A stretch of DNA of 64,000 nucleotides from Gammaproteobacteria bacterium. Its GTDB lineage: Bacteria; Pseudomonadota; Gammaproteobacteria; S012-40. Both the position numbers and the translations under genes were made by a program. The stretch's first letter is position 1, and the number at the start of each line of letters is the position of its first letter. Where the stretch lies: positions 66,479 through 130,478 of the forward strand of contig JAOUMY010000005.1 in NCBI GenBank assembly GCA_029881255.1. Reading direction: 5' to 3'. The notes under the pieces were generated by a model. The model did no database searches, was not told the origin of the DNA, and was given only the letters and a program-made list of their open reading frames with translations. Of this stretch, positions 17,833-41,110 are shown piece after piece.

Positions 17833-17854
17833 TTTTTAATAGTCTTTATATTGT

Positions 17855-23135: not shown

Positions 23136-25930
23136 GCAATGAGGTATCCGTTCAATTCTTGTATTAACTTATCTAGATCTTTCCCAAACAACTCCCTCGC
23201 CTTCAACAACCCACCCTCCTGGTTAAAGGGAATGTAGTTAAAGTCGTCTACCGTCATTTCGGCATTTTGGGCGATTTGGTCTTTTATTTTATTGAGCCAG
23301 GCGAGTTGGTCTGGCTGGAATGCTTTGTTTTGTTGTTTTAGCCAATTATTAAAGCGGTTGTTAACCAGCTCTGTGAAAGGTTCGAGCACGTCGCTTAGGC
23401 CGGTGGAAAAACGAATGAGGCTGACGATGTTGGTTAACAGCTCTTTCGGTGGTACGCCTTTGACTTTGTTTTTTTCCAACTGCTCGTAGGCCTTCCACAC
23501 TTCGATGGGCGCGAGATTATACGGCGGTTGCTGGATTTCTTCTGCCAGTTTTTCTATTTGCTCATAACTCAGGTGGCGCTTTTGATAGGGCTGCTGGTAG
23601 ATGAGCTGGATGGCGTCGAGTTCGTCTTTGTGGTCTTGAATAAATTGTTGCCAGTTTTGGATGAGGACTTCGGCTTTTTCTTCGTCGTAACCGGCGGCGA
23701 TCAGCTCATCGGCGCTGTCGTCGATGAGTTGGTCTGTGTCTTTGCGCAGTTCTTCGATGAGTTCGCGCAGGTCTGGATTGTGGAAGGGTTTGATTAGAAT
23801 ATCGGCCTTGGGTTTAAACGCTTCCTGGATTTGTTTCTCGTTTGGTTCATCGGTCTTGGCGTGTATTTTTGCCGCTTCGATTAAGGGCTCTTCGTTGGTG
23901 GCATGAATGAGTTCACCGGCGATGAGGGCCAGGGGTTTGTCGGTGCCAAGGGTTTCTTTAATTAAGCTGTTGACGCGTTTGCGTTGTTGGTCGTTGAGTT
24001 TGAGATCGAGCCGGATCATGCGGTTGCCGAGGGCACGCAGGGTTTCGGAATGGCGGTCGCCTCTGGCGACTTGTTCCATGAGTTTGGCGGTGGAGACGCT
24101 GGGTTTGGTTTCCAGTGATTTGGTTTCGGTTTTGTCGGTTTCGGTGACGCCGACGCAATCGACCAGCACAAAGCGGCTTTTACCGGGGGCATCGGGGGTG
24201 ACTTTGTGTAGTTCGTCTCGGCTGATGATGCGGGTGCCACGGCCTTTCATTTGTTCGTAGTAGGCCTGGCTTTTGACATCACGCATGAACATGACGCATT
24301 CCAGGGGCCGGATGTCGGTGCCGGTGGCGATCATGTCGACGGTAACGGCGATGCGGTATTGCGGATCGGTGCGGAAGGCCTTGATGGATTCTTCTGCGGT
24401 TTTTTTGCCGACTTTGTAGGTGATCTTTTTGCAGAAGGCGTTGCCTTCATCGAAGACTTCGCGCACGGCATCGACGATGCGGTCGCAGTGGTCGTCGTCT
24501 TTGGCGAAGATGAGGGTTTTGGGGACCCATTCCATTTTGTCTTGTTGCCATTTGCGCTCGGGGAAGCATTCTTTGAGGCAGCGGTCTTTATAGGCCTGGA
24601 TGACGGTGCGAATCTGGTTGGGGGCCAGAACGCTGCGGTCGAGTTGTTGGGCGAGCCATTCTTCTTCCTGGTCGAGCACTTCGAGGCGTTTTTGTTTGGT
24701 GAGGCGGTCGCGGATTTCGACGGCGGTGCCGGCTTCGATTTTGTTGCCCTGTTCGGTGAGCTCGGTTTTGATGCGGTAGATGTCGTAGCCCACATTGACC
24801 TTGTCGACCACGGCGTCTTCGTGGGTGTATTCGGAGACGAGGTTTTGCCCAAAAAAGCCGATGGTCTTTTTGGTGGGTGTGGCGGTGAGGCCAATGAGGA
24901 AGGCATCGAAGTATTCGAGCACCTGGCGCCAGAGGTTGTAGATGGAGCGGTGGCATTCGTCGATGATGATGACATCGAACTCTTCGATGGGGATGTCGGG
25001 GTTGTAGCTGACGGGCCGGGGCTCTTTGTTAATGGTACTGCCTTCTATTTCAAAGCCGGAGTGTTCGTCGGCCTCGTCATCCAGCTCTTGATGCGTAAGT
25101 TGGGAATACAGGCGCTGGATGGTGGAGATGGTGACCTTGGTGGCGTCGGGGATGCCGGCGCGGCCGAGGATGTTGACGTTGTAGTGTTGGGTGAATTTGC
25201 GGCCATCGTGGGGGATGACGAATTGTTCAAATTCATCCTTGGCATTGGTGGCGAGGTTGCCACGGTCGACCAGGAACAAGACGCGTTTGACCTTGGCGAA
25301 CTTGGCCAGGCGATAGACTTCGGTGACGGCGGTGTAGGTTTTACCGGAGCCGGTGGCCATTTGTAACAGGGCGCGGGGTTTGCCGGCTTTGAGGCTGTGT
25401 TCGATGCCGGTGATGGCGTCGATTTGGCACGCGCGCAGGTTGTCGGTGTTGAGTTCGGGGAGGTCTTTTAGTAAACGACTTCTGAGCGTCGTGCCCTCTT
25501 CTAACCATTCTTTACAGGTTTCGGGTTTATGAAAATGAAACACATTGCGTGAGCGTGGGAGCGGATCGCGCTCGTCGCGAAAACGAACTTCGTGGTTGGT
25601 GGCTTCATAGAGAAATGGAAGTGGTTTGTTCTCTGGCGCCCAACGCTCGATGTGTTTGGTATTGGACGTTGCGTAGCGTCCGGATTGCTCGGCCACACCG
25701 CCTAAATCACTGCCCTCGCGTTTGGCTTCGATGATGCCGCAGGCCTTGCCATCGATAAACAACATGTAATCAGCAGGACCAGTATCGGTATCCATTTCGC
25801 GCACAGCGACACCAATATTCTCGAAGAGATTGAGACGATTTTTATCCTGCACCACCCAACCCGCAGCGATCAATTTTTGATCGATTTCCTGACGCGTTTC
25901 GGCTTCGAGTTTGGTGTAATCAGGACTCAC
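23132..25930 (-). CDS. hsdR: Type I R-M restriction/helicase subunit HsdR
   Basis: N-terminal nuclease-like domain ETRQEIDQKLIAAGW. Walker A QMATGSGKT. DECH box IIIDECHRS. 932 aa. Confidence 0.9.
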   Translation of the reverse strand: MSPDYTKLEAETRQEIDQKLIAAGWVVQDKNRLNLFENIGVAVREMDTDTGPADYMLFIDGKACGIIEAKREGSDLGGVAEQSGRYATSNTKHIERWAPENKPLPFLYEATNHEVRFRDERDPLPRSRNVFHFHKPETCKEWLEEGTTLRSRLLKDLPELNTDNLRACQIDAITGIEHSLKAGKPRALLQMATGSGKTYTAVTEVYRLAKFAKVKRVLFLVDRGNLATNAKDEFEQFVIPHDGRKFTQHYNVNILGRAGIPDATKVTISTIQRLYSQLTHQELDDEADEHSGFEIEGSTINKEPRPVSYNPDIPIEEFDVIIIDECHRSIYNLWRQVLEYFDAFLIGLTATPTKKTIGFFGQNLVSEYTHEDAVVDKVNVGYDIYRIKTELTEQGNKIEAGTAVEIRDRLTKQKRLEVLDQEEEWLAQQLDRSVLAPNQIRTVIQAYKDRCLKECFPERKWQQDKMEWVPKTLIFAKDDDHCDRIVDAVREVFDEGNAFCKKITYKVGKKTAEESIKAFRTDPQYRIAVTVDMIATGTDIRPLECVMFMRDVKSQAYYEQMKGRGTRIISRDELHKVTPDAPGKSRFVLVDCVGVTETDKTETKSLETKPSVSTAKLMEQVARGDRHSETLRALGNRMIRLDLKLNDQQRKRVNSLIKETLGTDKPLALIAGELIHATNEEPLIEAAKIHAKTDEPNEKQIQEAFKPKADILIKPFHNPDLRELIEELRKDTDQLIDDSADELIAAGYDEEKAEVLIQNWQQFIQDHKDELDAIQLIYQQPYQKRHLSYEQIEKLAEEIQQPPYNLAPIEVWKAYEQLEKNKVKGVPPKELLTNIVSLIRFSTGLSDVLEPFTELVNNRFNNWLKQQNKAFQPDQLAWLNKIKDQIAQNAEMTVDDFNYIPFNQEGGLLKARELFGKDLDKLIQELNGYLIA

Positions 25931-26174
25931 GTATTTGCTTCACCGCGTGTTTGTGTTTGAGGTTTGGGATTGTAAAGACCGTAGTCGTGGGTGGCTACTG
26001 TCAAAAACGACAGTTCTGCTCACGATTTGATCAACAAAACGCTTGAACACACGCCAGACGTCGGCGCTTATCGGGTGTGAACACACCCACTTGGGTACAG
26101 CCACTACAAACATCATCATTAGCATTCCTTTTTCTAATGTTTTCGGGCGAGGTCCAAGAGTACGCCCGATGGGT

Positions 26175-26230
26175 TGGGAATGTAAAGTTATTAAGGGATT
26201 TCAGAGGCTTGCTAGTACATTTGTACTATC
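26175..26230 (+). repeat. conserved about 55-bp intergenic element, copy A (…tgtaaagtt…tcagaggcttgctagtacat)
   Basis: Shares the cgcccga / tgtaaagtt / tcagaggcttgcta core with copies at 28605-28660, 32052-32108 and 34243-34300. Confidence 0.6.
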
Positions 26231-26272
26231 GATTGAGAAGACTTGCTTCGAAGCCTTAGCGTTGAATGAAAT

Positions 26273-26455
26273 TTAAAATGCGCAAACAGGTTTCGGCAGA
26301 CTGTTGTGTGCTAGGTGATTCAGTGTAGTTCCTGCTCTAAATTCTTCGGGAAGGCGGAACATCTCCTCAATCAACCCGCCTTCAATCATGTCAATAAAGA
26401 TGTTCGCATCACTGATTAACAACATCTTGCGAACACTCCATGTTCCGACAGGCAT
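26273..26455 (-). CDS. short ORF, possibly truncated PIN-like/DUF4411-like gene often found downstream of HTH-ImmA regulators
   Basis: 60 aa. LLISDANIFIDMIEGGLIEE resembles a PIN-like N-terminus. Overlaps the ImmA gene end. Very tentative. Confidence 0.2.
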   Translation of the reverse strand: MPVGTWSVRKMLLISDANIFIDMIEGGLIEEMFRLPEEFRAGTTLNHLAHNSLPKPVCAF

Positions 26456-27476
26456 GGAGTGCCGATACTGACATTCCTAGTAATTCCGCAGCTTTTGATT
26501 CGCCAACAAGGTCTTCAGCTAAGGCATGGTAAACAAGTTGTTCAAACATACGAGCCGTTTCTTGAGGAAACTGTGGGTCGGGCTCTTGTTCTTTCCAGCC
26601 ATGTTTATTGAAGTATCCCCATAGTTTTCCGAAATGCTGGTTCGGCAATATACCGAGATCGCGTGCACGATAAAGCCATCCGCCCATGCTTAAGCCATAC
26701 TCGTGTTTGAGTATCATGAGTTCGCGCGGCTCTATCCAGGTTCGTTTGTTACCGAGATTCGCTTTTACTTTGCTTTGTGGTGCCAGGAATGCACCTGCGA
26801 AACGATGACAAGCGAGTTCTTCGTCCAAGTCTTTATTGAGGCGCCCATTGAGCACCAAGTGGCCTAGCTCATGCGCCAAGGTAAAACGCTGACGGTCTCC
26901 CGGCCAATGCTTTCCTACTACTACAACAGGACTTCCGTTGACGGTAGCAGACAGTCCATTGAAATGTTTGTGTCCGTCATATTGAGTAATAAAGACTTTA
27001 ATACCTTTTGCTTCGAGGGTATCTATCAGCACAGGAATCGGGTTTAGGCCGAGTTGCCATTCGGTGCGTATTTTATCCGCGACGTCTTCGATTTCATCAA
27101 ATGATTCTATTTGACGTGGCAAGTCTTCCGGAAGGACAAAAGGAACAGACCAGGGACTCGGAATAAATTCCTCCAGTTCTATCCAACGTTCAAGTTGCTC
27201 TTTTACGTCGGCATATACCTTTGCCTCTTCTTTAGCAGGCAGTTTTTCATGTTCACGATGTTCAACGTTCTCTAGCTCGACACTGACCTGGCGAAAGAAG
27301 TATTCGGTGCGAACATTTAGTGCTTTTGACAAGGCGAGCAAAACTTTCGACGAAGGCGTGGACTCGTTCCGTTCATATTTGGAGATCGCCATTGCTGTAA
27401 TCTCGGCCAACTCAGCCAAATCCCGCAATGACAGACCGGCAGCTTTCCGCGCTTGTTGTATCCGTTCTCCGATCAT
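26409..27476 (-). CDS. XRE-family HTH fused to ImmA/IrrE-type zinc metallopeptidase (DUF955) regulator
   Basis: N-terminal HTH QARKAAGLSLRDLAELAEITAMAISKYERNES. HEXXH motif LAHELGHLVL. 355 aa. Confidence 0.8.
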   Translation of the reverse strand: MIGERIQQARKAAGLSLRDLAELAEITAMAISKYERNESTPSSKVLLALSKALNVRTEYFFRQVSVELENVEHREHEKLPAKEEAKVYADVKEQLERWIELEEFIPSPWSVPFVLPEDLPRQIESFDEIEDVADKIRTEWQLGLNPIPVLIDTLEAKGIKVFITQYDGHKHFNGLSATVNGSPVVVVGKHWPGDRQRFTLAHELGHLVLNGRLNKDLDEELACHRFAGAFLAPQSKVKANLGNKRTWIEPRELMILKHEYGLSMGGWLYRARDLGILPNQHFGKLWGYFNKHGWKEQEPDPQFPQETARMFEQLVYHALAEDLVGESKAAELLGMSVSALHACRNMECSQDVVNQ

Positions 27477-27571
27477 TCTTGCTTCCTCGCAGCAGTTTAC
27501 ATAATTATTATTTCGAATGAATTTTTGTAAACTTTAGCATTCTAATCCATCGAGGTCAATTACCGGCATTG

Positions 27572-28480
27572 CTAAGCTGTTGATTTTATATACGGCACCC
27601 TCCCCACCGCCACCCCGTGCGCGTTCGCGCTTTCGCAGTGGACGAGTTGGTCGTCGAAAAATATGTGTGGGCGAAATGCCTTGAGGACTTCGCCTTTGGG
27701 CATGCCGCCGAGGAAAAACGTTTCGTCGAGGTCGACGTCCCAGGCGCGCAGGGTGCGGATGACGCGTTCGTGTGCGGGGCTGGCGCGGGCGGTGACGAGT
27801 GCGGTGCGTATCGGTTTGGGTTTGCTTGGGTGTTGGTTTTGTATATAGGCGAGGGATTTGAGTAATTTTGCGAACGGGCCTTCGGGTAGGGGTTTTTGTT
27901 TGTTGTCGCGTTCGTGTTTGACGAAGGCGTCCAGGCCTTGTTCTTTATAGATGCGTTCGGACTCGTCGGAGAACAACACCGCGTCGCCATCGAAGGCAAT
28001 GCGGATTTGATCAATTTCTGTCTGCTCGGGATGCGCCGGTGTTTCGTATAACAAGGCGGCGGCGATGTTGGCGTTGACTGCTGCTTGCACATCATCTTCA
28101 TACAGCGACAAAAACAAATCGATTTTGTAGGCGTGCAGATATGGCGCGAGGGTTTCACCGCCGGTGAGCGCGGCGCGTTGAATATCGAGGCCGTAGTGTT
28201 CGATGGAGTTGAATATGCGCAGACTGGTCTCGGCCGAATTGCGCGACATGATCACCACCTCGGTGGTGCGCTCGCCGGGCAGGGTTTGATTGAGTTTGAG
28301 AAAGGCCTTTACCAGCGGAAAACCGGGGCCGGGTTTGAGGATGTCGTTTTCGTGGGCGAGTTGATGGTCTTCATAGGCCCGGAGCCCCTGCTCGTCATAA
28401 ATGCGATTCTCCGCACTCAGGTCAAACAAGGCCCGCGAGGATATTCCAATAACGAGGTACTGACTGAGATCGACTGGCAA
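27572..28480 (-). CDS. HAD-superfamily 5'-nucleotidase (cN-IA-like / PF06189-type)
   Basis: HAD motif I IAFDGDAVLFSDESE (DxDxV). 302 aa. Family assignment from overall similarity recalled from memory, not searched. Confidence 0.5.
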   Translation of the reverse strand: MPVDLSQYLVIGISSRALFDLSAENRIYDEQGLRAYEDHQLAHENDILKPGPGFPLVKAFLKLNQTLPGERTTEVVIMSRNSAETSLRIFNSIEHYGLDIQRAALTGGETLAPYLHAYKIDLFLSLYEDDVQAAVNANIAAALLYETPAHPEQTEIDQIRIAFDGDAVLFSDESERIYKEQGLDAFVKHERDNKQKPLPEGPFAKLLKSLAYIQNQHPSKPKPIRTALVTARASPAHERVIRTLRAWDVDLDETFFLGGMPKGEVLKAFRPHIFFDDQLVHCESANAHGVAVGRVPYIKSTA

Positions 28481-28604
28481 ACATACTCCCTTTCAATGCT
28501 AACTCAGACACCAACCTAACCTGGGAGAGCGACAGGGTGTGTCGCTTGCATGGCAAATTGTCCTGATTTTGCCAATGTATTTCTCGGCGGCCGAAAGAAG
28601 CATA

Positions 28605-28660
28605 GGTCGAACGGGTGGATGTGTAAAGTTTTTAGCGAAATCAGAGGCTTGCTATTACAT
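28605..28660 (+). repeat. conserved intergenic element, copy B
   Basis: gtgtaaagtttttagcgaaatcagaggcttgctattacat. About 90 bp upstream of the 28752 gene. Confidence 0.6.
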
Positions 28661-28751
28661 AAGTATTACCTTCGGGGCGCTATTTACGCTGGCCATACAC
28701 GGCCAACATCGCTAACATAGCCGTTCCTTTGGTCCGAACAACAATAATCAA

Positions 28752-29402
28752 ATGCCAATCACCAGAATGCCGATTCATGTGCGTCTATTTCTCAGCGGTC
28801 TTGTGCTTTGCGCTTTGTCTTGTTCGTTAGTGTTTGCTGCCAATGTCGAAGATATTCCGCCGTGCGATAGCCCCAGTTGCGACCGCGTCGCGCAAACCAT
28901 TCCCTGGGAAAATGCGCACGCAAACCCTGACGGACAAACTGTACGCATCGGAAGATTTTCCTTCGTCATCCCTACGGGGGCTGAGGTACGTCTATCGGGG
29001 GATCTGACTTTTTTTCACTATAGTGATAAGCCGCGTCGTTGGTTGTCTGTTCGCTTGAACTCCATACAAGACGTCGATCTGACAGAAGCGGATTTAGGTG
29101 ATCTGCGCTTTGCCGATGCGGTTCGCATATTGTTCACTAAGACTCGCCAGGACAAAGAGCCGAGCAATCTTCATGCACGCAATATGTGGCGCAGCCTGTT
29201 ACACGCCAAGTCATTACACATTGCCGAGAACACGCCGGTGTATTTCTCTCACCGTGGTGACGCGGAAGTGGCCTTCGGTCAGTGGGAGGATGGCAGACGG
29301 TTTGTGTTTATAGCCAACAAACACACTTCCCATGCTTACGTACAGATAGAAGGCACAGGTTTCAGTGACGCGGAGATGAAGGGTTTTGCTTTTCAAAATT
29401 AA
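28752..29402 (+). CDS. secreted hypothetical protein (signal peptide)
   Basis: MPITRMPIHVRLFLSGLVLCALSCSLVFAANV. 216 aa. Confidence 0.5.
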   Translation: MPITRMPIHVRLFLSGLVLCALSCSLVFAANVEDIPPCDSPSCDRVAQTIPWENAHANPDGQTVRIGRFSFVIPTGAEVRLSGDLTFFHYSDKPRRWLSVRLNSIQDVDLTEADLGDLRFADAVRILFTKTRQDKEPSNLHARNMWRSLLHAKSLHIAENTPVYFSHRGDAEVAFGQWEDGRRFVFIANKHTSHAYVQIEGTGFSDAEMKGFAFQN

Positions 29403-29416
29403 AATAAGAGGAAGCC

Positions 29417-29749
29417 ATGGGCGCATTACAGCAAGAAGAGATTGCTGCCTTCGAATACATCTTCGAAGCGACATTCAAGGACAATCCTAAAAATCATGGT
29501 TGCGGCGTTCCCAACCGCCGAACGATTGATGCAATGGAAAAAGTGCTGGAAGAAGCAGAGAAGTGTAATAAGAATCTTTCCCGACTCATTACGCAACTGT
29601 TAGGAATCGCCATTCGTGGCCGTGGTTGGCTGATGCGTATACTCAAACAGTTGGGTAAGGAACTGAGTTTCAAGTTTCGTATGTGTCTTACCTTTACCGC
29701 GGGCTACTACTATAAATCCGTGGTGATTGAGACTATGTATCAGTGTTAG
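29417..29749 (+). CDS. hypothetical protein
   Basis: Good RBS aagaggaag 7 nt upstream. 110 aa. No recognised domain. Confidence 0.4.
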   Translation: MGALQQEEIAAFEYIFEATFKDNPKNHGCGVPNRRTIDAMEKVLEEAEKCNKNLSRLITQLLGIAIRGRGWLMRILKQLGKELSFKFRMCLTFTAGYYYKSVVIETMYQC

Positions 29750-29823
29750 TCTTGAAATTTGGGATAGATACAACTTTCTCTGCGAACCGAACCAATAAAA
29801 CAAAATCAATAAAGGAGATTTGT

Positions 29824-30177
29824 ATGGCCGATGCCATTCAAAAAGAAGAGCTTAGGCAGATGATAGAAGCGTTTTATCGTTTTGCGGGCGTGAATCCACC
29901 CGCCAATCTTGAAATCAATGAGAGTGTTGCCAGTGTGTTTGGGTCGATGTTGCAGGAAACCCGCAAGTGTTCGGATGCTTTCAAGTGGATTCCTCCGCCC
30001 CCAGGTGGTAGGCCGAGTATCGGCTGGTTGGTTACCAATATCGGCAAGTCTTTCATCAGGAGCCTGAATGATAAGATGTCGTTTACTTGTGCCCGTGGCG
30101 TGATTTATGTTTGGGGGCATCATTTGCAACGTGCTTCGTTGCTCAATATTTCAATGGGAACTCCAGCATGGGCGTAG
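29824..30177 (+). CDS. hypothetical protein
   Basis: RBS aaaggag upstream of ATG at 29824. 117 aa. Confidence 0.4.
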   Translation: MADAIQKEELRQMIEAFYRFAGVNPPANLEINESVASVFGSMLQETRKCSDAFKWIPPPPGGRPSIGWLVTNIGKSFIRSLNDKMSFTCARGVIYVWGHHLQRASLLNISMGTPAWA

Positions 30178-30761
30178 TTAAAAGTATTTCATTTATCCTC
30201 TGCCTCACCTTCTCATCAATTAGCTGTGCCGCCGATGCATTGCGTGAGATACCGTGGCCAAACAAATCCACGTGTATTGATTGCTTGCAGGTGGAACTCA
30301 ATCGTTATCAGTTTCAGTTACCCAGCAGTGATGTAAAGTCGGTTTCGACGCAAACGCTTTCGAGCACGGTAGTGGATATTCAATTAACGCGTGATGCCAG
30401 CCAACGCGGTATCGCCTTGATGGAATTGACACCGGAAAAGTTAACCGCGGATTTTGAACAACTCGGCTATTTTTCAAAGCTGCATATCAAAAACACTCGC
30501 GAGTTTTTTCTCGTCCTCGGCAAAACCTATGACGAAAAATCCCCCGGCGACATCATGCGCAAGACCATGGCGGTGGATGTGGCCAGTGAATATGTGTGGA
30601 GCCATAAAGATAATCTGAGTGCGTTCTGGATGAAATCGAATAATCCAAGTTCGCAGAGTGTGTATGTGGTGAATGATAAGGAAGCAAATGTGTTGTTTGT
30701 AGGTGGTGCGGTGACGGAGGAGTTGTTTGGGAGGATTTTGGGGACGTTGCGGATTCGGTGA
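30172..30761 (+). CDS. secreted hypothetical protein of the cassette family; in-frame TGA followed by conserved family C-terminus (to 30890)
   Basis: Signal peptide ISFILCLTFSSISCAADA. After the TGA at 30759 the same frame continues for 43 more codons to a TAA stop (30891-30893). It encodes NRLITLILSGPEIGFMETVI, homologous to the C-terminus DRLITLTLWGRDIGFLESVI of the 34365 protein. Confidence 0.5.
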
Positions 30762-30939
30762 AGAAAGTTGTATCTGTTCCCAATTTCAGTGACCAACCGT
30801 CTCATCACCTTGATACTGTCGGGCCCGGAAATTGGGTTTATGGAGACGGTGATATCAGAAATCAACAACGCGGAACATTCGCAGACCAGATAAAATATTT
30901 TTTTCGTGGATCAGAAAAACAATAAGAGGAAATTTCTCA

Positions 30940-31620
30940 ATGAATAGCGAACAACAAAACGACAAAGCGCAAAATTTTAACCAAATGTTGGTAAGGGCAA
31001 TCTTCAATACCTCAGTAGCCATACTTATCTGCATACCAATAAGCTTTTTTGATTACCCAGACTACATCGATTCAATCCTGGATAGCGCCTTTTTCCTGTC
31101 TTGGATTCTATGTGGTGCGTTAATAACCACGCTGCACTTTAGAATGAAAAAGGCAAAACTAGGCTGGCTTGCTTTGTCATATTGGTCGATACTATTTATT
31201 TTGCCTATCTTCATGCCATTTTACCTTCCTGTATTTTTTTCGCTCATTGGCGCACAAGTCTACAATAAAGCGAAGAATCCGCTGACACTCGGCGATGACG
31301 AGACTGCCCTTGTACCTGATAATAGCGAAACGGAATTAACAGCGACTCAGGATGGGAGTTCATCTTTGACGCTTGCCTGGGTTCTTCTCATTTCTCATTT
31401 TCCCTATCTCGTGTTCCTATATACCTTCGACTATTCTGAGTGGAATGGAGTCTTCGCTTTGACGACGACATTTTGCATCGCCGCCCCGGTGACTATTCTC
31501 ACCATTTTTTTTCTGGGCGGAAATGCGCCGCAGAAGGAACGCGGCCAAATCAGCTTTATAAAGCTGATCATGCTAGCGGCGTTGATAGCAGAAGTATACC
31601 TGTCCACAACAGGACACTAG
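30940..31620 (+). CDS. integral membrane hypothetical protein (about 6 TM)
   Basis: RBS aagaggaaa upstream. Hydrophobic segments throughout. 226 aa. Confidence 0.5.
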   Translation: MNSEQQNDKAQNFNQMLVRAIFNTSVAILICIPISFFDYPDYIDSILDSAFFLSWILCGALITTLHFRMKKAKLGWLALSYWSILFILPIFMPFYLPVFFSLIGAQVYNKAKNPLTLGDDETALVPDNSETELTATQDGSSSLTLAWVLLISHFPYLVFLYTFDYSEWNGVFALTTTFCIAAPVTILTIFFLGGNAPQKERGQISFIKLIMLAALIAEVYLSTTGH

Positions 31621-32051
31621 AATAAATCTGCCTGAATCAGGTTTAGAACGGGAAAATTGTAAGACACGCCGATTACTAAAAACAAACTGTTTCCTGTTAT
31701 ACAAGAGTAGATATCGTCTATGCGAAAATCAGGGAGATTTAAATGATTTACCGGACACGTGTAGTCATTGCAGACTGGTATTGCAAATTGCCGTAGCCTT
31801 CACCTGGAGATAGTTCGCTGAATGTTACCTAATATGTCAGCCATTAAACTTTCCATTCTTCGAATTATTTTCAAAAAGTTCGAACTCTACGCCGATTCGC
31901 AAGAATTCAACTTCTGTTCCGCACACTCAATCATGTCGTCCAGCTAATGTCTCCCCCCCGATTACTCCCGGGTTAGACTCCCGACTAAACTGCGGAAAGC
32001 AACAGGCCGCGCTATAAAGATGGCGATTGGGCTGAAAAGAATAGATCGAAC

Positions 32052-32108
32052 ACTTAGTTGTGTAAAGTTTTTGAAGTTATCAGGGGTTCGCTAGTTCGAA
32101 GGTAGTAA
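32052..32108 (+). repeat. conserved intergenic element, copy C, immediately followed by orphan cassette 3' fragment (32120-32216)
   Basis: tcgaacacttagttgtgtaaagtttttgaagttatcaggggttcgctagtt. Then a short ORF ending LPDRLITLRLRGRDIGFMETGIWGQII. Confidence 0.6.
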
Positions 32109-32335
32109 GCCCTATAGCAATTATCCTGACCTTGCCCGACCGTCTCATCACCTTGAGATTGCGGGGTCGGGATATTGGGTTTATGGAAACTGGGATTTGG
32201 GGGCAAATTATATAAAAATGTACTGAGAATTCAGTAGCTAGTTCGTTCTGCATAGTTTGAATTCTCGCCTTTACATCAACATGTTTGCCATGTTACGGTT
32301 TCCTCACGAAAACACTTAAATTGCTAGTTAAAATG

Positions 32336-32998
32336 AAAATAATAGCTCTTCCAATTGCCGTAGCCTTCACCTTATTCCTCAGCCCGCCGGGTTTCGCCGA
32401 AACGGACTCATTGCCCACAGCCATGCAGTCCTGCGCCAATATGACGGTTTGTGAGCAAACAGCGGTCAAGCAGCCGTTTCCCGGAGCGGGAAACAATCTG
32501 GAAGTCGCTGTTGGTGGTGGACACTTTTCATTCTTTCCGCCTGATGCCGTAACCGATGTCGCCGTGGGGTGGGGAGAGTCGCCAAACTATGTGATCAGAC
32601 TCAAGGGTGGCAAGCTCATGGCATCCGAGGAGCGTCTGGTGCGCCTGGATAACACGGGTCTTTGCTCAGCGAACGAGTCGCCAGCACCAACTCTGGCACG
32701 TTTTCTTTTTCTTCAGACCGCGAAAGAAAAGGAACCTGACGACAAATGTCAACAAACAATTTTCAGGCTGGCTTTTTTTCAAAAGAGTTCGTCCATATTC
32801 AAGGATGCTCAACATTTGGTCTGGTTCGAGAAGAACAACCTGGAGATTTATCTCGCCAATGTTTCGGGCATTGATCACGACACCTACGCGATGGTGACTC
32901 ATCGAGACAAGCCGTTCCACTATTTAGTGATACGTACCCAGGGAGTTGATAGAGAACGTTTGCTCAAAACACTTGCAACAATAAAAATAAAACCATAA
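32336..32998 (+). CDS. secreted hypothetical protein (cassette family member)
   Basis: Signal peptide MKIIALPIAVAFTLFLSPPGFA. C-terminus LLKTLATIKIKP resembles ...VIAGIKIKK of the 34365 protein. Confidence 0.5.
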   Translation, partial: KIIALPIAVAFTLFLSPPGFAETDSLPTAMQSCANMTVCEQTAVKQPFPGAGNNLEVAVGGGHFSFFPPDAVTDVAVGWGESPNYVIRLKGGKLMASEERLVRLDNTGLCSANESPAPTLARFLFLQTAKEKEPDDKCQQTIFRLAFFQKSSSIFKDAQHLVWFEKNNLEIYLANVSGIDHDTYAMVTHRDKPFHYLVIRTQGVDRERLLKTLATIKIKP

Positions 32999-33008
32999 GG
33001 CCTTATCT

Positions 33009-33353
33009 ATGACACTGACCTATACACAACAGAAAGATGTTGCGGAGTTGTTGGCTGCACTCTTTAACGACAATGAATATCTCTACCACGTAAACAAAAT
33101 CAACCGCGAAACTGTGCGTTACGCGGAAGACGTTATTGTGATGTTCCGCTTCTGTAACAAGGCATCGGCTGGATTGTTGGCGGGGATACAGTGCATTCCG
33201 AAGTCTAAAAACATCTATGGCTGGTTACTAAGCTGTCTTCCTGCAGTACATAAAGTGGTCAAGGCCAATCGCGAGATTTTCTATTCTAATTTTATGTGCG
33301 ATATCGCAATACAGTCGCATCGAAATGCGCTTAAAGGGACGATGATCCGCTAG
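33009..33353 (+). CDS. hypothetical protein
   Basis: 114 aa. Its last 8 codons (HLKGTMIR*-like NALKGTMIR*) lie within the 32-bp repeat also found at 37756. Confidence 0.35.
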   Translation: MTLTYTQQKDVAELLAALFNDNEYLYHVNKINRETVRYAEDVIVMFRFCNKASAGLLAGIQCIPKSKNIYGWLLSCLPAVHKVVKANREIFYSNFMCDIAIQSHRNALKGTMIR

Positions 33354-33361
33354 TGGGGGCG
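33330..33361 (+). repeat. 32-bp direct repeat copy 1 (cttaaagggacgatgatccgctagtgggggcg)
   Basis: Identical 32-mer at 37756-37787. Confidence 0.7.
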
Positions 33362-33648
33362 ATGAATACGCATTTGGCTTGTCGGAGTCGAGCAGTTATG
33401 GGATAGATCTGGTGTATCAACATCTGTTCAACCACCCACAGCGTCCCGCGAACTTCGGCATCGTAACTACTAATATGGTAGGGAACGCCAATGCCACTGG
33501 TGTTTCCTGTCATCAGCGAACCTGGAGGCGCCGTATATGTGCCTTTGGGAATTGGTGCATACAAGCCCGGCATGCCGGAGCGAACCTTCCATGATTTTCC
33601 GAAGCCCTGTAGTTGTTGCAGATTAGTGTTATAAACAAGCGTGGTCAT
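33331..33648 (-). CDS. hypothetical protein (possibly coupled to upstream secreted protein gene)
   Basis: 105 aa. ATGA overlap with the 33645-34151 gene. No domain recognised. Confidence 0.3.
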   Translation of the reverse strand: MTTLVYNTNLQQLQGFGKSWKVRSGMPGLYAPIPKGTYTAPPGSLMTGNTSGIGVPYHISSYDAEVRGTLWVVEQMLIHQIYPITARLRQAKCVFIAPTSGSSSL

Positions 33649-34151
33649 TTTTTACAATTTCCTTTCAGTAATTCTAGTTGTTTTTCGAGATCGTGGTATT
33701 TTGGCGCACTTTCCCCACTCCAGAACAGCAGCACAGTATTGTTATCGCGTTGTGTGCAGAGATATACGCGTAGCACGAACGTGGTATCGTTGTATCGATA
33801 ACCGGTGTACTGCCAGGGTGTGCCATCGCCAGTCTGCTTTTGAGTATTTGGGAATTGCTGACTATCCATATCGGCTAGTCGTTGATAGTAGTTGCGCCCA
33901 ACCCCCCTTGTATCAACAAACCACAACATATTATCGCTACCGAACGTGGGTTTGATCCATGTAGATGTGTTGATATCCAGACCCTGTTCGATCAAGGCAG
34001 CGAGAAATTCATTGTCGGCAGCGAGTATGGCCCGCTCATCAATGGAAACTTTCAACCAGCCGTCTACTGTATCGTTTTTGTTTGCAAAACAACTGGTGGA
34101 ACAAACAAATGCCATCAGCGAAAACAATAGAATGAAATGTCGGTGACGCAT
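33645..34151 (-). CDS. secreted hypothetical protein
   Basis: Signal peptide MRHRHFILLFSLMAFVCSTSCFA. 168 aa. Confidence 0.5.
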   Translation of the reverse strand: MRHRHFILLFSLMAFVCSTSCFANKNDTVDGWLKVSIDERAILAADNEFLAALIEQGLDINTSTWIKPTFGSDNMLWFVDTRGVGRNYYQRLADMDSQQFPNTQKQTGDGTPWQYTGYRYNDTTFVLRVYLCTQRDNNTVLLFWSGESAPKYHDLEKQLELLKGNCKK

Positions 34152-34242
34152 AGCGTGGAATTCTCAATACGGGTTCAGCAACAACATGGAACTATGCATA
34201 GATAGGCCTATCCATTTATCAGTTTTTATAGCTGTGACCAAG

Positions 34243-34300
34243 ACTACGCCCGATTAAGTAGGTGTGTAAAGTTCTTTATATATGTACCGGATCGAATAGT
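34243..34300 (+). repeat. conserved intergenic element, copy D
   Basis: acgcccgattaagtaggtgtgtaaagttc... About 70 bp upstream of the 34365 gene. Confidence 0.5.
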
Positions 34301-34364
34301 ACAAAGGTGGTATCTCTTTTGCTGGTGCTCAATTTATGCCGCAAAACATATTGAGTAGCCCGCG

Positions 34365-34856
34365 ATGTCGAAGGGCAAAGCAAAACCAATTCACTATGGC
34401 CCCCTGAATATCGATCTGCCCGAAAACCCGACTTCTATAAGCACCTCGGGAATCGATGGCAAGTTAGTCATCACCTTTACTGGCAAGACCGAGGCTGACT
34501 ATAGCCAACTGATGAATATGGATTTCAGCAAAAGCCAGTTTCGTCTCGCCGACAAAGCACGCATTCAATACGGCGCACTGAAAGCAGCGAAGAACGCTTT
34601 GAACGAACAAGATCAGGCCTTTTGGAATCGCCACCTGCAAAACAGACATGCGCTGTTTTCAGAAAAGTCACGATTGTTCATTACCGGCCACTCTGGTCTA
34701 ACGGTTTACTATTCCAATGAACGACCTCAGTGGTGGTCCGCACAGGCGATCATTACTTTGGACGAGTTGCCCGACCGGCTTATCACGTTAACACTGTGGG
34801 GTCGAGATATTGGGTTTCTGGAGTCGGTGATTGCGGGAATTAAAATAAAAAAATAG
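34365..34856 (+). CDS. hypothetical protein, cassette family with full-length conserved C-terminus
   Basis: 163 aa. C-terminus TLDELPDRLITLTLWGRDIGFLESVIAGIKIKK is shared with orphan fragments at 30780-30890 and 32120-32216. Confidence 0.5.
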   Translation: MSKGKAKPIHYGPLNIDLPENPTSISTSGIDGKLVITFTGKTEADYSQLMNMDFSKSQFRLADKARIQYGALKAAKNALNEQDQAFWNRHLQNRHALFSEKSRLFITGHSGLTVYYSNERPQWWSAQAIITLDELPDRLITLTLWGRDIGFLESVIAGIKIKK

Positions 34857-34867
34857 GAGGACAAATC

Positions 34868-35011
34868 CATGGCATTAACATCAGAAGAACAGGCGCTGGG
34901 GCGTCGGGCGTGGATTCCTACGCCGTTGTTTACGCGCGGCAGTGAAGATACTGAAAGACAATCCTTTCGCTGCCACCGCTTGTCAACGTGCAATCGCAGG
35001 CTCGTTGATTA
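34868..35011 (+). CDS. possible small protein (47 aa)
   Basis: Strong RBS taggagg 6 nt upstream of the ATG. Below the ORF-track size cut-off. No homology recognised. Confidence 0.25.
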
Positions 35012-35098
35012 AAGCAGAAATTTTTATGTCGGCGGAGAATTGAGATGAGGTATCTATCATGACTACTCTCGAACTTCTATATCTCTTTATTTAAATCA

Positions 35099-35996
35099 TC
35101 ACATCTTCCAAATGGAAAGATGCCTCCATCCATCGGGAAAACCCATGATCGCTGGCCTGGCAATAGGATGATTATCCATCAATTGCATCAAGCGATTCTT
35201 CCAATGGGTGTTGGGACTTATACGTTCCATCAGGTACTCCAATAGAACCAGCGTATTGTACAGTTTCTTGGATTGAGCCGGATTGAAACAGGCAATGAAC
35301 TGCGCGGGGCGGCGACTGGGTATTTTCATTTGAAAACCAAATTGCCGATTCCATAATCGACTGTGATGGGCGCAAATGTTCCGGATGATGGTGAGGTGAT
35401 GTAAGAATGAAATCAGTACGCTTTCGTCCAGATCATAAATATCCGCAATGGCTCGACGATCAGCTCGCTTTTTTGATGTTGGAAACCCACTTGGAAAGTT
35501 GGCCGAGTGACATTACCTCGACCACTGCCCAGATAGGTGGTAATTCTAGATCATCGTACTTGTTTCGATAGTGATTGATGAAGGTTTCCTGGCTGCGATC
35601 AATTTCTTCTTTAAGGTTTTTTATGCAACGTTGGTATTGATTGCCATTATTGAAAATGGATTTATCAAGAAACGCGTGGGCACCATAGATATGGCCCAAG
35701 TGATAAGCCCATTGTGTTCGCACAGAAACTTCGATTCGTTCGATCGCATCCATCACCAATAGCCGTAATTCACGATCGAAAATGTAAAGGTGTAAGACGT
35801 CTTCGAATGTTGTGCCAGTCTTGAATTGATGGGTGGAGTGATCTGCTTCAAACGGAAGCCAGTAAGCACCTAGGCGATAATAGTTGAGGTGTGCAAGATA
35901 GTGGCATGCCCGGTTATGGTCGGGGATCGACATCCCTCGGGTTTCAAGTAGATGGATTTGTTGTTCGAGGGTGGTTGGGGGCTTGGTAAAACGCAT
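35099..35996 (-). pseudogene. Abi_2-family abortive-infection protein (AbiD/AbiF-like), single frameshift
   Basis: N-terminal ORF 35460-35996. The downstream frame encodes RRAIADIYDLDESVLISFLHHLTIIRNICAHHSRLWNRQF (Abi_2 signature) and runs into ORF 35099-35329. The frames switch at a T6/A6 run at 35462-35467. Confidence 0.7.
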
Positions 35997-36377
35997 TGAC
36001 TAGCCCCAGTAAAAGTAACCCGCCGGGGTGCGCAGATCTGACGGAATGCGTGGCGGGTGTTGTTGCTGCTAATTATCGGCAACTTTTTATCTTTTTCAAG
36101 GAGAAATTTACTGTTTGCGAAAAAAAGCGGCTGCGCTTTCAGTAAATACCTATGAAAAGCAGGCCTAGCAAATAACCGTTCAATTAGAGGTTCCGCATGT
36201 TGGAATATAGTTTTTAGAGACAATTCACCGCCCCTTTCCCTCTTTATTAATGTTTATTTTGTATTGCATAAGAATAATCGTAGTATCGTGATTTTACAAA
36301 AAGTAATTAATAATTTCATGTAGTTATTAGTACTTTCGGGGCAGCTCAGCAATTTTTGTGGCCTATCGGTTTCCCGC

Positions 36378-36541
36378 CTGGCGCGGGCGGTGACGAGTGC
36401 GGTGCGTATCGGTTTGGGTTTGCTTGGGTGTTGGTTTTGTATATAGGCGAGGGATTTGAGTAATTTTGCGAACGGGCCTTCGGGAGATATTGAGTTTGAG
36501 AAAGGCCTTTACCAGCGGAAAACCGGGGCCGGGTTTGAGGA
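36378..36541 (+). repeat. internally deleted, 100 %-identical fragment of the 5'-nucleotidase gene (copies of 27780-27886 and 28289-28341 joined)
   Basis: 107 bp identical to 27780-27886, a 4-nt junction, then 53 bp identical to 28289-28341. Same orientation as the parent gene. Confidence 0.8.
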
Positions 36542-36665
36542 AAGTAGGGGCAGATACCAGTTTTCGCTAATGTAAGCAGTAGCTTGTATCTGACCCGACT
36601 TTCCCTTGACCAGATGCAACATAAGAGTTATACGTTACATACATCTATTTAACGTATAACACCCT

Positions 36666-37712
36666 ATGGAAAACTTGCCGCTTTCGACCACTACCCTGTT
36701 CCAACAATTTGTCGAACAGGTCACCTCCGACGAATTGAGCCGGGATCTAGGTGATCTGGCCGGCAGCTTTGTATCCAAGGAGGTGAAGGGAAAGCCTTAT
36801 TGGTATCTCCAATACCATGAAGCGGGAAAACAAAAACAGGTATACCTTGGGCCCGAGAATGACAGAGTTCTGAAACTTGTAAACAATTGGGATGACATTC
36901 GAACCGAGGCAAAACTCAGCCAGCAACGTCGACAAGAAATGTGCGCCATGTTAAAAGCGGGCGGTTTACTTGCGCTGGACTCGGCCGTTGGTAAGGTACT
37001 GTCGATGCTTGCAGACAGCGGTATCTTTCGCGCGGGTGTCGTACTGGTCGGAACACAAGCGTTTCGATCTTATGGAAATCTACTCGGCGTAAAGTTATTC
37101 GGTTCTGCGATACAAACACACGATATCGATCTCATTCAGGACCTCGACGTTGACGTGGTACTTCAGTCCAATATCCAAATCGACTTTGGCGACATAATCG
37201 AACGTACCGAGATGGGGTTTATACCTATCCCTGCGTTAAATCCAAAACATCCTTCGACGTCGTTCAAGATTCGACGAAAAGAAATCAAACTCGATATGCT
37301 CACACCGCTCATTGGCAAGCCTGAGTCCGGTCCAATAAAACTACATTCACTCCAGACCTATGCCCAACCATTGCGATTTCTCGACTTCCTAATAAAGGAA
37401 CCGATACAAACCGTGTTAATCGACAACGCCGGTATCCTGGTGAATATTCCTCATCCGGCTCGTTATGCGCTGCATAAATGCATCATTTCATCACGACGTC
37501 CAATTACACAAAGAGCGAAAAGTAAGAAAGATATTTTTCAAGCAGAAATCCTGTTCCAGGTTCTCCTCGACATCGATCGCGTATCACTTCTTTCTGCATG
37601 GAAAGACCTGGAAAGTTTCGGAAAGAACTGGCAGAGCCATGCTCGTGAAGGAATAGACAAGATTTCTGACAAGGAACTGCTTAGCAAGCTTGCTGAATTG
37701 TTGTCGTTTTGA
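36666..37712 (+). CDS. nucleotidyltransferase-fold protein (GSU2403/AbiEii-like, tentative)
   Basis: 348 aa. GVVLVGTQAFRSYG and HDIDLIQDLDVDVV are consistent with a G[SG]-x(n)-DxD NTase core. Assignment tentative. Confidence 0.35.
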   Translation: MENLPLSTTTLFQQFVEQVTSDELSRDLGDLAGSFVSKEVKGKPYWYLQYHEAGKQKQVYLGPENDRVLKLVNNWDDIRTEAKLSQQRRQEMCAMLKAGGLLALDSAVGKVLSMLADSGIFRAGVVLVGTQAFRSYGNLLGVKLFGSAIQTHDIDLIQDLDVDVVLQSNIQIDFGDIIERTEMGFIPIPALNPKHPSTSFKIRRKEIKLDMLTPLIGKPESGPIKLHSLQTYAQPLRFLDFLIKEPIQTVLIDNAGILVNIPHPARYALHKCIISSRRPITQRAKSKKDIFQAEILFQVLLDIDRVSLLSAWKDLESFGKNWQSHAREGIDKISDKELLSKLAELLSF

Positions 37713-37755
37713 AAAAAGTGAGGTCAGATTGAAACAGCCACATTATATCGGCCAC

Positions 37756-37787
37756 CTTAAAGGGACGATGATCCGCTAGTGGGGGCG
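37756..37787 (+). repeat. 32-bp direct repeat copy 2
   Basis: cttaaagggacgatgatccgctagtgggggcg. Forms the end of a tiny remnant ORF (…HLKGTMIR*). Confidence 0.7.
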
Positions 37788-37986
37788 GATTCAATTCCAA
37801 ACCTGCGTCTTGAAATTCCCCGGGCAGACGATTGATATCCCTGTCGGGAGTCATAAATGCCTCAAGCCGTTCGGTGATAATTCGAAAACTCAGAGGAAAC
37901 TAAAATAAGAGCCATATCGGGGGTAGACCCCTTTTTTCTGTTACTATGCGCCCGTTCTCTATCCATAACCCACCAGGACAAACCCC

Positions 37987-39369
37987 TTGAACCAGACGCC
38001 CTTTTCCACACTTGCACTCAACCCCGCCCTGCTCGAGAACCTGAGCTCGCTCGGCTATACCGCCATGACACCCATCCAGGCGCAGAGTTTGCCGCATGTG
38101 CTGGCGGGCAAGGATGTGATTGCGCAGGCGAAGACAGGTTCTGGTAAGACCGCGGCATTTAGTCTGGGTTTGCTGGAAAAGCTGGATGTGCGAAACCTGC
38201 GTGTGCAGGGTTTGATTCTTTGCCCGACGCGGGAGCTGGCAGATCAGGTGGCGACCGAGGTGCGCAAACTGGGGCGCAGTATTCCGAACATCAAGGTGCT
38301 GACGCTGTGTGGCGGCACGCCCGTCGCGCCGCAGAAGGCCTCGCTGGAACATGGTGCGCATATCATCGTCGGCACACCTGGCCGGGTGGAGGATCACCTT
38401 AATCGCGGCTCGCTGAAACTCGATGGGCTCAACACCCTGGTACTGGATGAGGCGGATCGCATGCTCGATATGGGTTTTCAACCGGCGCTGGATGCAATTA
38501 TCGACGCCATACCCACGCAGCGTCAGACGCTATTGTTTAGTGCCACCTTTCCGCAGCAGATTCAATCCATCGCTAAGCGCGTGATGCGCGAGCCGGTATC
38601 GGTGCAGTTGGAAGAAACCCATGACAGCAGCAGTATTCAACAGCACTTCTTCAAACTCGATGACAATGTAGAACGTTTGACCGCCGTGCGTTTGCTGCTG
38701 CTCAAGCATCGGCCGGAATCCGCGGTGGTATTTTGTAATATGAAAAAGGACGCGCAGGAAATTGCAGATGAACTGGGCCGTTATGGCTTTACTGCCAAGG
38801 CCTTGCATGGTGATCTGGAACAACGTGAGCGTGATCAGACGCTGGTGCAGTTTGCCAACAAAAGTATTTCGATTCTGGTGGCGACCGATGTCGCGGCGCG
38901 CGGGCTGGATATCGATGCACTGGATGCGGTGATCAATTATCAACTGGCGCACGATGCGGAGGTACACGTGCACCGTGTCGGTCGCACCGGTCGCGCGGGT
39001 AACAAGGGCATTGCCTGTACTTTGTATTATGAAAAAGAGGCGCACAAATTGGCGCGGCTTGAGGAATATTTAGGCCGTTCGATCAAAGCCGAATCTCTGC
39101 CCTCTTTTAATGTGCTGGAAAAACCGGTCTATCGCGCAGCGATGGTGACACTACAAATCGATGGCGGTAAAAAACAGAAAGTCCGCGCCGGTGATATTCT
39201 GGGTGCACTGACCGGCGAAAACGGGATTGATGGAAAACAGGTGGGCAAGATTCAGTTATACGATAACTGGTCTTTTGTCGCAGTGCGACAGGAAGTCGCA
39301 AAGGCCGCGTTGCAGAAATTAACCCAGGGTAAATTGAAAGGCCGCTCGTTTCGAGTGCGGAAAATATAG
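37987..39369 (+). CDS. dbpA: ATP-dependent RNA helicase DbpA (DEAD-box with C-terminal 23S rRNA-binding RRM-like domain)
   Basis: Q motif/Walker A AKTGSGKTAAF. DEAD box VLDEAD. SAT. HRVGRTGRAG. C-terminal RBD VTLQIDGGKKQKVRAGDILGALTGE. Confidence 0.9.
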   Translation: MNQTPFSTLALNPALLENLSSLGYTAMTPIQAQSLPHVLAGKDVIAQAKTGSGKTAAFSLGLLEKLDVRNLRVQGLILCPTRELADQVATEVRKLGRSIPNIKVLTLCGGTPVAPQKASLEHGAHIIVGTPGRVEDHLNRGSLKLDGLNTLVLDEADRMLDMGFQPALDAIIDAIPTQRQTLLFSATFPQQIQSIAKRVMREPVSVQLEETHDSSSIQQHFFKLDDNVERLTAVRLLLLKHRPESAVVFCNMKKDAQEIADELGRYGFTAKALHGDLEQRERDQTLVQFANKSISILVATDVAARGLDIDALDAVINYQLAHDAEVHVHRVGRTGRAGNKGIACTLYYEKEAHKLARLEEYLGRSIKAESLPSFNVLEKPVYRAAMVTLQIDGGKKQKVRAGDILGALTGENGIDGKQVGKIQLYDNWSFVAVRQEVAKAALQKLTQGKLKGRSFRVRKI

Positions 39370-39432
39370 CGAGTTACTGAGAAAGTTGTGACTGAGCCTA
39401 CTTTCCGGGTTCGGTGAGTAATCCACTGTCAA

Positions 39433-41108: not shown

Positions 41109-41110
41109 TA

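Follow-up and report, generated by a model that had tools for sequence, protein, structure and literature searches.

What is the row of small, seemingly unrelated genes that occupies 28.6–35.0 kb of a 64,000-nucleotide stretch of gammaproteobacterial DNA (NCBI GenBank assembly GCA_029881255.1, contig JAOUMY010000005.1, positions 66,479 to 130,478; hereafter the window, 64 kb long), and how was it assembled? The source is a metagenome-assembled genome of an uncultured gammaproteobacterium (locus tags OEZ43_...). A sequence-only reading of this locus had described an array of paralogous cassettes with conserved ends and variable middles, which could reflect either recombination-driven switching of cassettes or the accumulation of orphan immunity-like modules. 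The plus strand of the array carries, in order, A, B, C, D, a short reading frame E, F, a short reading frame G, H, I, L, and M; the minus strand carries two genes only, J and K. We found two paralogous families among these genes, X and Y, whose homologues in other genomes are linked to type VI secretion system (T6SS) clusters. In our judgement, held with moderate confidence, the array is probably an orphan T6SS immunity/effector islet that was built by successive displacement.

Four plus-strand genes of the array belong to family X: A (28752..29402, 216 amino acids (aa)), D (30168..30761, 197 aa), H (32333..32998, 221 aa), and L (34365..34856, 163 aa). Together with two X relics, described below, they lie within 6.2 kb. 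Their proteins share pairwise identities of 16–22%, and BLASTP comparisons among them are not significant. Yet a hidden Markov model (HMM) built from 56 family members, with the window proteins left out, matched each of them: A with an E-value of 1.7e-40 (profile positions 1–210), H with 1.9e-40, L with 1.5e-26 (profile positions 49–220), and D with 4.1e-19. No other protein of the 64 kb was matched by this HMM. Because a profile built without them matches each, the four are genuine, though very distant, paralogues, and the paralogy proposed from the sequence alone was borne out. The closest relative of A (P0005) is 45% identical to it, and that of D (P0010) 41%. When L, the four window proteins, or a 60-member alignment served as queries in word-indexed searches, little was retrieved beyond proteins of the window itself and one T6SS clade. 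Since these searches found almost nothing, the breadth of the family was seen only by an exhaustive profile search, which returned 83 further cluster representatives, nearly all of them full-length (190–240 aa).

The X alignment is characterized by a signal peptide, the motifs C-x-GP-x-C..VA..WP and I-x-FTKTPxDxEP-x4-D-x3-WR-x-A-x3-K, and a C-terminal IIGSIKL-like end. The IKIK/LRIR endings that had been noticed in several cassettes are, in this alignment, the family-wide C-terminal motif. An N-terminal hydrophobic segment is present in 57 of 60 members, and 17 of the 60 carry a lipobox-like site. Signal peptides can be read in A, which also has the CxxxxC motif, and in D and H. L begins at profile position 49 of 220, its frame being closed upstream at 34359, and it therefore lacks both the signal peptide and the Cys motif; it holds the complete version of the repeated 3′ end. 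Thus, the description of the cassettes as mostly signal-peptide proteins fits A, D, and H and fails for L. None of 60 X members reached the curated threshold of a family in Pfam, NCBIfam, or PADLOC, and the profile matched no PDB sequence. An AlphaFold2 model of H, computed with the family alignment, has an alpha/beta fold (predicted local distance difference test (pLDDT) 91.9, predicted template-modelling score (pTM) 0.86). A Foldseek search with this model found no significant solved structural relative, and its weak match was to the model of a phage lipoprotein (BFVD, E 2.6e-4, template-modelling (TM) score 0.39–0.45). X is predicted to be a Sec-exported, disulfide-containing alpha/beta protein of ~200 aa.

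Two further sets of candidate X relatives were discarded. The matches of the X profile to three actinobacterial proteins (P0016, P0050, and P0078) are spurious and fall on Ala/Thr/Gly-rich Ig-like repeats. A degenerate DNA pattern for FTKTxxDxEP-x8-W(R), run against genome and metagenome contigs, gave 17 and 4 matches, respectively; all were due to chance, with no X or Y signal.

Family Y and an inverted repeat within the array had escaped the sequence-only reading. Y comprises C (29824..30177, 117 aa), the probable members B (29417..29749, 110 aa, without a signal peptide) and I (33009..33353, 114 aa), and a degenerate remnant, M (34869..35012, 47 aa), all on the plus strand. C matched the 108-aa gene that follows X in a T6SS locus (L003) by BLASTP (1e-9), and an HMM built solely from Y proteins of T6SS loci matched C at an E-value of 4.6e-6. 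B and I matched each other by BLASTP (2.5e-4), and a profile of the two matched the Y profile by hhalign (E 1.8e-3). M, too short for an HMM, was judged by eye from alignments: it retains the N-terminus, the WIPxP motif, and the SFxC motif, and its middle is gone. Only N32, C49, and C89 are invariant in the family. Y is predicted to be helical; it measures ~110 aa, lacks a signal peptide, and has two cysteines that are invariant. Curated thresholds (Pfam, NCBIfam, and PADLOC) were reached by none of nine Y members, no PDB family matched, and tblastn of Y against plasmids returned no match. An assignment to DUF6244 was rejected, as the match was below threshold and confined to a 26-residue stretch (16.8 bits against a cut-off of 31.6).

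Because B, C, I, and M form a family, the repeated unit of the array is a two-gene pair, in which an exported X is followed by Y 11–15 nucleotides (nt) downstream. B starts 15 nt past the stop codon of A, and I starts 11 nt past that of H. The exception is C–D, in which Y comes before X, the two genes overlap by 10 nt, and the pair is flanked by a 27-nt inverted repeat. The left arm of this repeat (29753..29779) is complementary at 24 of 27 positions to the right arm (30762..30788), which abuts fragment E; these are the only two copies in the whole window, compared with none expected. B, C, and I are intact open reading frames (ORFs) and M is degenerate, while D and the relics have no downstream partner.

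Where do such pairs occur in other genomes? The sequence-only reading had proposed a search for homologues near T6SS loci, and X–Y homologues indeed lie between tssC and hcp/tssE in six other loci, which represent two lineages. Genomic context was seen for 10 family members only. Five of them (P0091, P0075, P0094, P0089, and P0092) are part of canonical T6SS clusters (loci L003–L011), in the order tssK-tssL-tssM-tssA-tssB-tssC-[X]-[108-aa Y]-hcp-...-tssE-tssF-tssG-vgrG; the TssC of L003 is ~70% identical to the TssC proteins of Pseudomonas and Burkholderia. In one of these loci (L010) there are two tandem X–Y pairs, whose X proteins are 46% and whose Y proteins are 52% identical. In the second lineage, a divergent cluster (L018) that comes from a biogas metagenome, three X–Y-like pairs are interspersed with four hcp genes in the interval from tssC to tssE. 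Within the first T6SS clade, identities are 66–83% for X, 83–95% for Y, 88–95% for TssC, and 93–97% for Hcp, which makes X the fastest-evolving of these genes. In the orphan loci (L013/L014, L015/L016, and L017), X is intact, and Y is either reduced to its N-terminal ~66 residues or broken by a stop codon (L013). The site between tssC and hcp is a hotspot at which effectors are acquired and exchanged, and in Serratia marcescens it holds the effector–immunity pair ssp1-rap1a (PMC6889166).

The sub-clade L006–L009 has an additional gene at this site, which encodes a 157-aa lipoprotein with an SH3_3 domain and lies between tssC and X (7735–8208 in L006). Bacterial SH3 domains often bind the cell wall, and this lipoprotein would fit a periplasmic target for the X–Y neighbourhood.

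In the window itself, we scanned 34 of the ORFs of at least 100 aa and two shorter ones against Pfam, and precomputed Pfam marks covered nine more genes at 23132–28480 and 35460–43951; most of the other ORFs are short or lie across annotated genes. Among the scanned ORFs there was no T6SS, Rhs, or CdiA gene, which agrees with the earlier remark that no Rhs/CdiA toxin gene lies nearby. With homologues in T6SS clusters, orphan loci in which the partner is truncated, and a window without T6SS genes, the second of the two possibilities raised at the outset, an accumulation of orphan immunity-like modules, was essentially supported. Five features together point to a polymorphic T6SS cargo and its immunity protein: the position in the tssC–hcp slot, the multiplication within clusters, the co-divergence of X and Y, the export of X, and the orphans that keep X and lose Y. 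None of them suits a structural component.

The same clusters have to be read against a structural role all the same. X and Y might be accessory or structural parts of a T6SS subtype, with the window copies as decaying leftovers of lost clusters; X would then be a periplasmic or lipoprotein stand-in for TssJ, or a sensor, and Y a cytoplasmic assembly or regulatory factor. The seen parts of the X–Y-bearing clusters have no Pfam-recognized TssJ, the lipobox-like sites of X would suit such a role, and Y is conserved about as well as TssC. Two or three divergent copies inside one cluster are not what a structural part would show, nor are four copies at ~20% identity in a locus without a T6SS gene, an orphan X that is intact beside a broken Y, or an X that evolves faster than any other gene of the cluster. 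The alpha/beta model of X, which had no significant solved relative, of whatever kind, in the Foldseek search, also speaks against this role, and we consider it quite improbable.

We therefore return to the effector–immunity reading. By the usual logic of such pairs, the exported partner X would be the immunity protein and the small, unexported Y the Hcp-type effector. In the mechanism we propose, Y would be carried by Hcp and act in the periplasm of the attacked cell, where its two invariant cysteines could form a disulfide, and X would be the periplasmic immunity protein against it. The present role of the array could be to make its host immune to several Y-type effectors fired by neighbours, or to supply a T6SS encoded elsewhere in the genome.

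Several observations weigh against this reading. Y has no recognizable toxin fold or catalytic motif, its AlphaFold model, based on three window sequences, is unreliable (pLDDT 46), and at 108 aa it would be very small for a T6SS effector. A small four-helix protein is seen more often among immunity proteins than among toxins. The conservation of Y, close to that of the structural genes, would be uncommon in a polymorphic toxin, and the placement of B and I in the family rests on the weak statistics of the hhalign match and on synteny. X resembled no known immunity family in the Pfam, PDB sequence, and Foldseek searches. A T6SS context was seen in two lineages only, out of about six that were informative. 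The label "immunity only" does not fully fit, as three of the window's four Y genes are intact, and the lack of T6SS genes refers to the scanned ORFs of the 64-kb window.

The resemblance of Y to small helical proteins of the immunity or antitoxin type also bears on another explanation, namely that X–Y is a self-contained pair that hitch-hikes in variable regions, including the tssC–hcp hotspot and defence islands. Its roles might be reversed, so that X would be the active, exported factor and Y an antidote or regulator in the cytoplasm, or it might be an envelope-defence pair. The surroundings agree with this: the array has type I restriction-modification genes, an XRE-M78 regulator, and Abi_2, NTP_transf_8, Fic, CcdAB, and PIN genes as neighbours, and the orphan loci L015/L016 adjoin HicA(B), AAA_15, and PIN genes. 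The weak match of the X model to a phage lipoprotein could be taken in the same sense. It is hard to explain without a T6SS function, however, why two divergent lineages have pairs exactly between tssC and hcp/tssE, in one of them interleaved with hcp, and in orphan loci an antidote would not be expected to disappear before its partner. We regard a self-contained pair as unlikely.

If the array is an orphan immunity/effector islet, how did it come about? The 3′ end of L recurs in three copies (30789–30876, 32132–32219, and 34767–34854) with 74–78% nucleotide identity, and the two orphan copies of a 3′ end that had been seen earlier are the first two of these. They lie in fragment E (30789..30893, plus strand) and fragment G (32117..32219, plus strand), both relics of L-type X genes. 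E consists of the last ~24 codons and a divergent tail, and is in frame with D, past the D stop codon, within a short reading frame at 30768–30893. G preserves the last ~32 codons, with a short reading frame at 32117–32215. The nucleotide identity of E to the G and L copies is 74–75%, and that of G to L is 78%; by BLASTP, G matched L at 5.6e-9 and E matched the C-terminus of L at 5.5e-6. G and L differ by eight synonymous and six non-synonymous codon differences, a pattern suggesting that the conservation was acquired as coding sequence and, consequently, that E and G are relics of L-like genes.

Each of the three L-type 3′ ends is preceded by unrelated DNA. In the first, A-B-C-D and an arm of the inverted repeat adjoin relic E; in the second, the repeated element described below adjoins relic G; and in the third, the element is followed by the 5′-truncated L. 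These junctions fit successive insertions that overwrote the 5′ part of a resident gene, whose 3′ end was retained. The same pattern in the orphan immunity arrays of Vibrio cholerae was ascribed to homology-facilitated illegitimate recombination (PMC5361080). In the history we propose, foreign modules were acquired one after another; each, on arrival, would have overwritten the 5′ part of a resident L-type X gene, of which the 3′ end stayed behind. Since the flanks have diverged by 20–35%, either the events are old or different donors supplied the modules. Exact repeats of 107, 53, and 32 bp around the locus, in contrast, point to recent rearrangement.

What, then, is the sequence that recurs between the cassettes? 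The sequence-only reading had placed a ~55-bp upstream element before each of the four genes. The element is real, and it extends over ~85 bp. It has four plus-strand copies in the window (nhmmer E 4e-19 to 1.5e-17), and its core, GTGTAAAGTT, has nine matches, compared with 2.45 expected from shuffles. Copy 2 (28597..28681, E 1.1e-18) lies directly before A, between it and the 5′-nucleotidase gene (minus strand, start 28480), and copy 4 (34239..34326, E 3.9e-18) lies directly before L, between it and J (minus strand, start 34151). Copy 3 (32036..32119, E 1.5e-17) is directly fused to fragment G, which separates it from H. No copy precedes D, and copy 1 (26155..26242, E 3.9e-19) is outside the array, upstream of the minus-strand start of hsdR (25930), where it precedes no cassette.

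On the minus strand, the invariant block TGTAAAGTT of the element gives a predicted -35 hexamer, TTTACA, which is followed 17–18 bp on by a TAnnCT hexamer. The spacer varies, and T1, A2, and T6 of the second hexamer are invariant in all four copies. A promoter scan listed two of them: TTTACA-17-TATGCT in copy 2 (28627–28599) and TTTACA-17-TATTCT in copy 3 (32066–32038). TTTACA-18-TACTCT in copy 1 and TTTACA-18-TAGTCT in copy 4 were read from the sequence. These promoter-like sites point toward hsdR, the 5′-nucleotidase gene, and J–K, and away from the cassettes. The other half of the element holds a semi-palindrome, TAGTAC-N4-GTACTA, which is perfect in copy 1 and could be a putative operator for the adjacent XRE-M78 regulator. 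As a single strand, the four copies fold no better than shuffles (z -0.9 to +1.5), and Rfam had no match to the element in the region; a structured RNA and an attC site were therefore rejected as identities of the element. It is best seen, from these sequence features, as a shared divergent regulatory region with a predicted sigma-70-type promoter, and not as a recombination site or hairpin. In none of the other loci retrieved did we find the element, the inverted repeat, or the L-type 3′ end.

These properties also bear on cassette switching, in which phase or antigenic variation would arise as silent cassettes recombine into an expression site. Conserved flanks, namely the ~85-bp element and the L-type 3′ end, do surround unrelated middles, and C–D is enclosed by an inverted repeat. 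The flanks, however, are only 65–81% identical and thus too diverged for efficient homologous exchange, and the encoded proteins are ~20% identical. Each cassette is a complete gene with a start of its own, not a silent partial copy. No recombinase, invertase, or integrase such as IntI was found among the scanned window ORFs, the element has no hairpin and no attC-like fold, and it is absent before D and present at a cassette-free site. The locus is moreover covered by two further assemblies, one over 24365–44856 and one only over 33332–36407, and both are collinear with the window. Switching, the first of the two original possibilities, is not supported and is in our view very improbable.

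As an orphan immunity/effector islet, the array would be of a known kind, since orphan T6SS immunity and effector–immunity islets have been described; the X and Y families are uncharacterized, and the siting in an island of phage-defence and toxin–antitoxin genes is unusual. The closest likeness is to the orphan T6SS immunity arrays of V. cholerae (Kirchberger et al. 2017, PMC5361080), which also consist of tandem, divergent immunity-type genes with 3′-end relics between modules, and whose modules are likewise evidently foreign and without a dedicated integrase. The V. cholerae arrays are located at the 3′ end of a T6SS cluster, behind vgrG/hcp, whereas no T6SS gene lies within 28 kb of the array studied here, which is inside a restriction, Abi, and toxin–antitoxin island. 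The relics of the present array derive from the 3′ end of the presumed immunity gene, those of V. cholerae from that of the effector; three small partner genes are intact here, and the protein families are unrelated and undescribed.

Acquired interbacterial defence (AID) clusters are said, in work of Ross and colleagues from 2019, to reside on mobile elements with recombinases, unlike the array, in which no recombinase was seen among the scanned ORFs. What the array does share with the islet of Salmonella Typhi (PMC7400221) and with the AID and orphan immunity genes of Bacteroidales (PMC10470768, PMC12247911) is the location of immunity genes in accessory DNA away from an apparatus, with a presumably protective role. 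It differs in holding one family where those islets hold many, and in that its function is predicted from sequence.

In Serratia, the periplasmic immunity gene rap1a precedes the small Hcp-type effector gene ssp1, and Ssp1 belongs to the Tae4 family. X and Y have no sequence or Pfam relationship to known families such as Tae4, and Y (108 aa, predicted to be all-helical) is smaller than the effectors of the Serratia slot. The tssC–hcp slot itself is the same for the X–Y homologues as for ssp1-rap1a and ssp6-sip6 in the T6SS clusters of Serratia and Enterobacter (Mariano et al. 2019, PMC6889166). The array also recalls integron cassette arrays, with its row of small, unrelated-looking genes, mostly in one orientation, and a recurring short intergenic sequence; unlike in an integron, this sequence lacks the attC-like hairpin and is absent at several cassette boundaries, and IntI is missing from the scanned ORFs.

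A wider claim is possible, and we put it forward tentatively: X–Y would be an undescribed T6SS effector–immunity family, so far known almost only from metagenomes, and the array a T6SS-independent, multi-allele immunity islet that lies within an anti-phage and toxin–antitoxin island and has the ~85-bp element as its common regulatory element. Should both parts of this claim be true, the toxin, a helical, Hcp-loaded protein of 108 aa with two cysteines, would be among the smallest T6SS effectors, and the immunity protein would be periplasmic and have a new fold. Anti-bacterial and anti-phage defences would then be pooled in one hotspot, possibly under joint regulation by the XRE-M78 regulator. 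The orphan-islet reading by itself would add to the T6SS repertoire an effector–immunity family of which neither partner is found in curated families or solved structures. It would also mean that, in an uncultured gammaproteobacterium, genes for immunity to contact killing accumulate beside restriction, Abi, and toxin–antitoxin genes. The relics of the array would record how an islet is assembled without an integrase, and the T6SS-embedded homologues offer a direct route to functional tests.

Three genes of the array belong to neither family, and no protein of the array region matched Pfam, NCBIfam, PADLOC, or PHROGs. J (33645–34151, minus strand, 168 aa, with a signal peptide) and K (33331–33648, minus strand, 105 aa) overlap by 4 nt. 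They are unrelated to the X–Y pairs and matched neither the X nor the Y HMM nor any library searched; they have the same layout of an exported protein and a small protein, in the opposite orientation, and may be another immunity/effector-type pair. A resemblance of K to a truncated Tlde1-type L,D-transpeptidase effector, suggested by a PIPKGTY motif, was dismissed, as there was no Pfam or PDB similarity. F (30940..31620, plus strand, 226 aa) is hydrophobic (grand average of hydropathy 0.54) and matched no family in the library searches. It starts behind relic E, where a Y gene would follow the 3′ end of X, and its ribosome-binding context is similar to that of L–M; a repeat (30916–30936 ~ 34847–34867) lies upstream of both F and M.

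The region around the array bears further traces of rearrangement. The 5′-nucleotidase gene (27572–28480, minus strand) has a partial copy 8.6 kb downstream that is 100% identical and carries an internal deletion, and the exact repeats this copy forms are 27780–27886 = 36378–36484 (107 bp) and 28289–28341 = 36489–36541 (53 bp). As a result, the X–Y array and the Abi_2 gene are bracketed by exact direct repeats, which points to a recent duplication/deletion or insertion event. Interleaved with the 107-bp repeat is an exact direct repeat of 32 bp (33330–33361 = 37756–37787), one copy of which falls where I and K share their 3′ ends and the other in the intergenic region after the NTP_transf_8 gene. 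A Logan contig (L002) breaks exactly at the 32-bp and 107-bp repeats. Over 20.5 kb, the window differs from an independent assembly (L001) at seven positions, all within a 34-bp patch of hsdR (24524–24557; hsdR 23132–25930), which suggests strain variation or a small recombination tract. Directly upstream of Abi_2 (35460–35996), in the place expected for it, is a sub-threshold match to the abiF RNA motif (RF03085, 36018–36057, minus strand; 26.9 bits against a gathering threshold of 37).

Beyond the Fic gene lies a second copy of the 3′ end of the helicase gene dbpA (39112–39360 ~ 41287–41535, 94% identity), and a further repeat (41101–41286 ~ 43416–43614, 76%) brackets the gene that comes next, which has no known function, and CcdAB. 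Islands near the array thus seem to insert with duplication of a flanking gene end. On the other side of the array, the genes for type I restriction are dispersed: hsdM at 13035–14540, hsdS at 21720–23135, and hsdR. Between hsdM and hsdS there are genes for a ResIII/DEAD helicase (14564–17638), an HATPase_c_3 protein (17855–20206), and a metallophosphatase (20203–21702), which may be an embedded defence system; the helicase gene is flanked by a 181-bp direct repeat (14365–14545 ~ 17657–17837, 80%). Farther upstream, a RhuM-family gene (10320–11328, minus strand) is divided into two overlapping frames that match profile positions 1–120 and 116–249, which suggests a frameshift pseudogene, and a 38-bp repeat (9398–9435 ~ 11505–11542, 95%) flanks the RhuM region.

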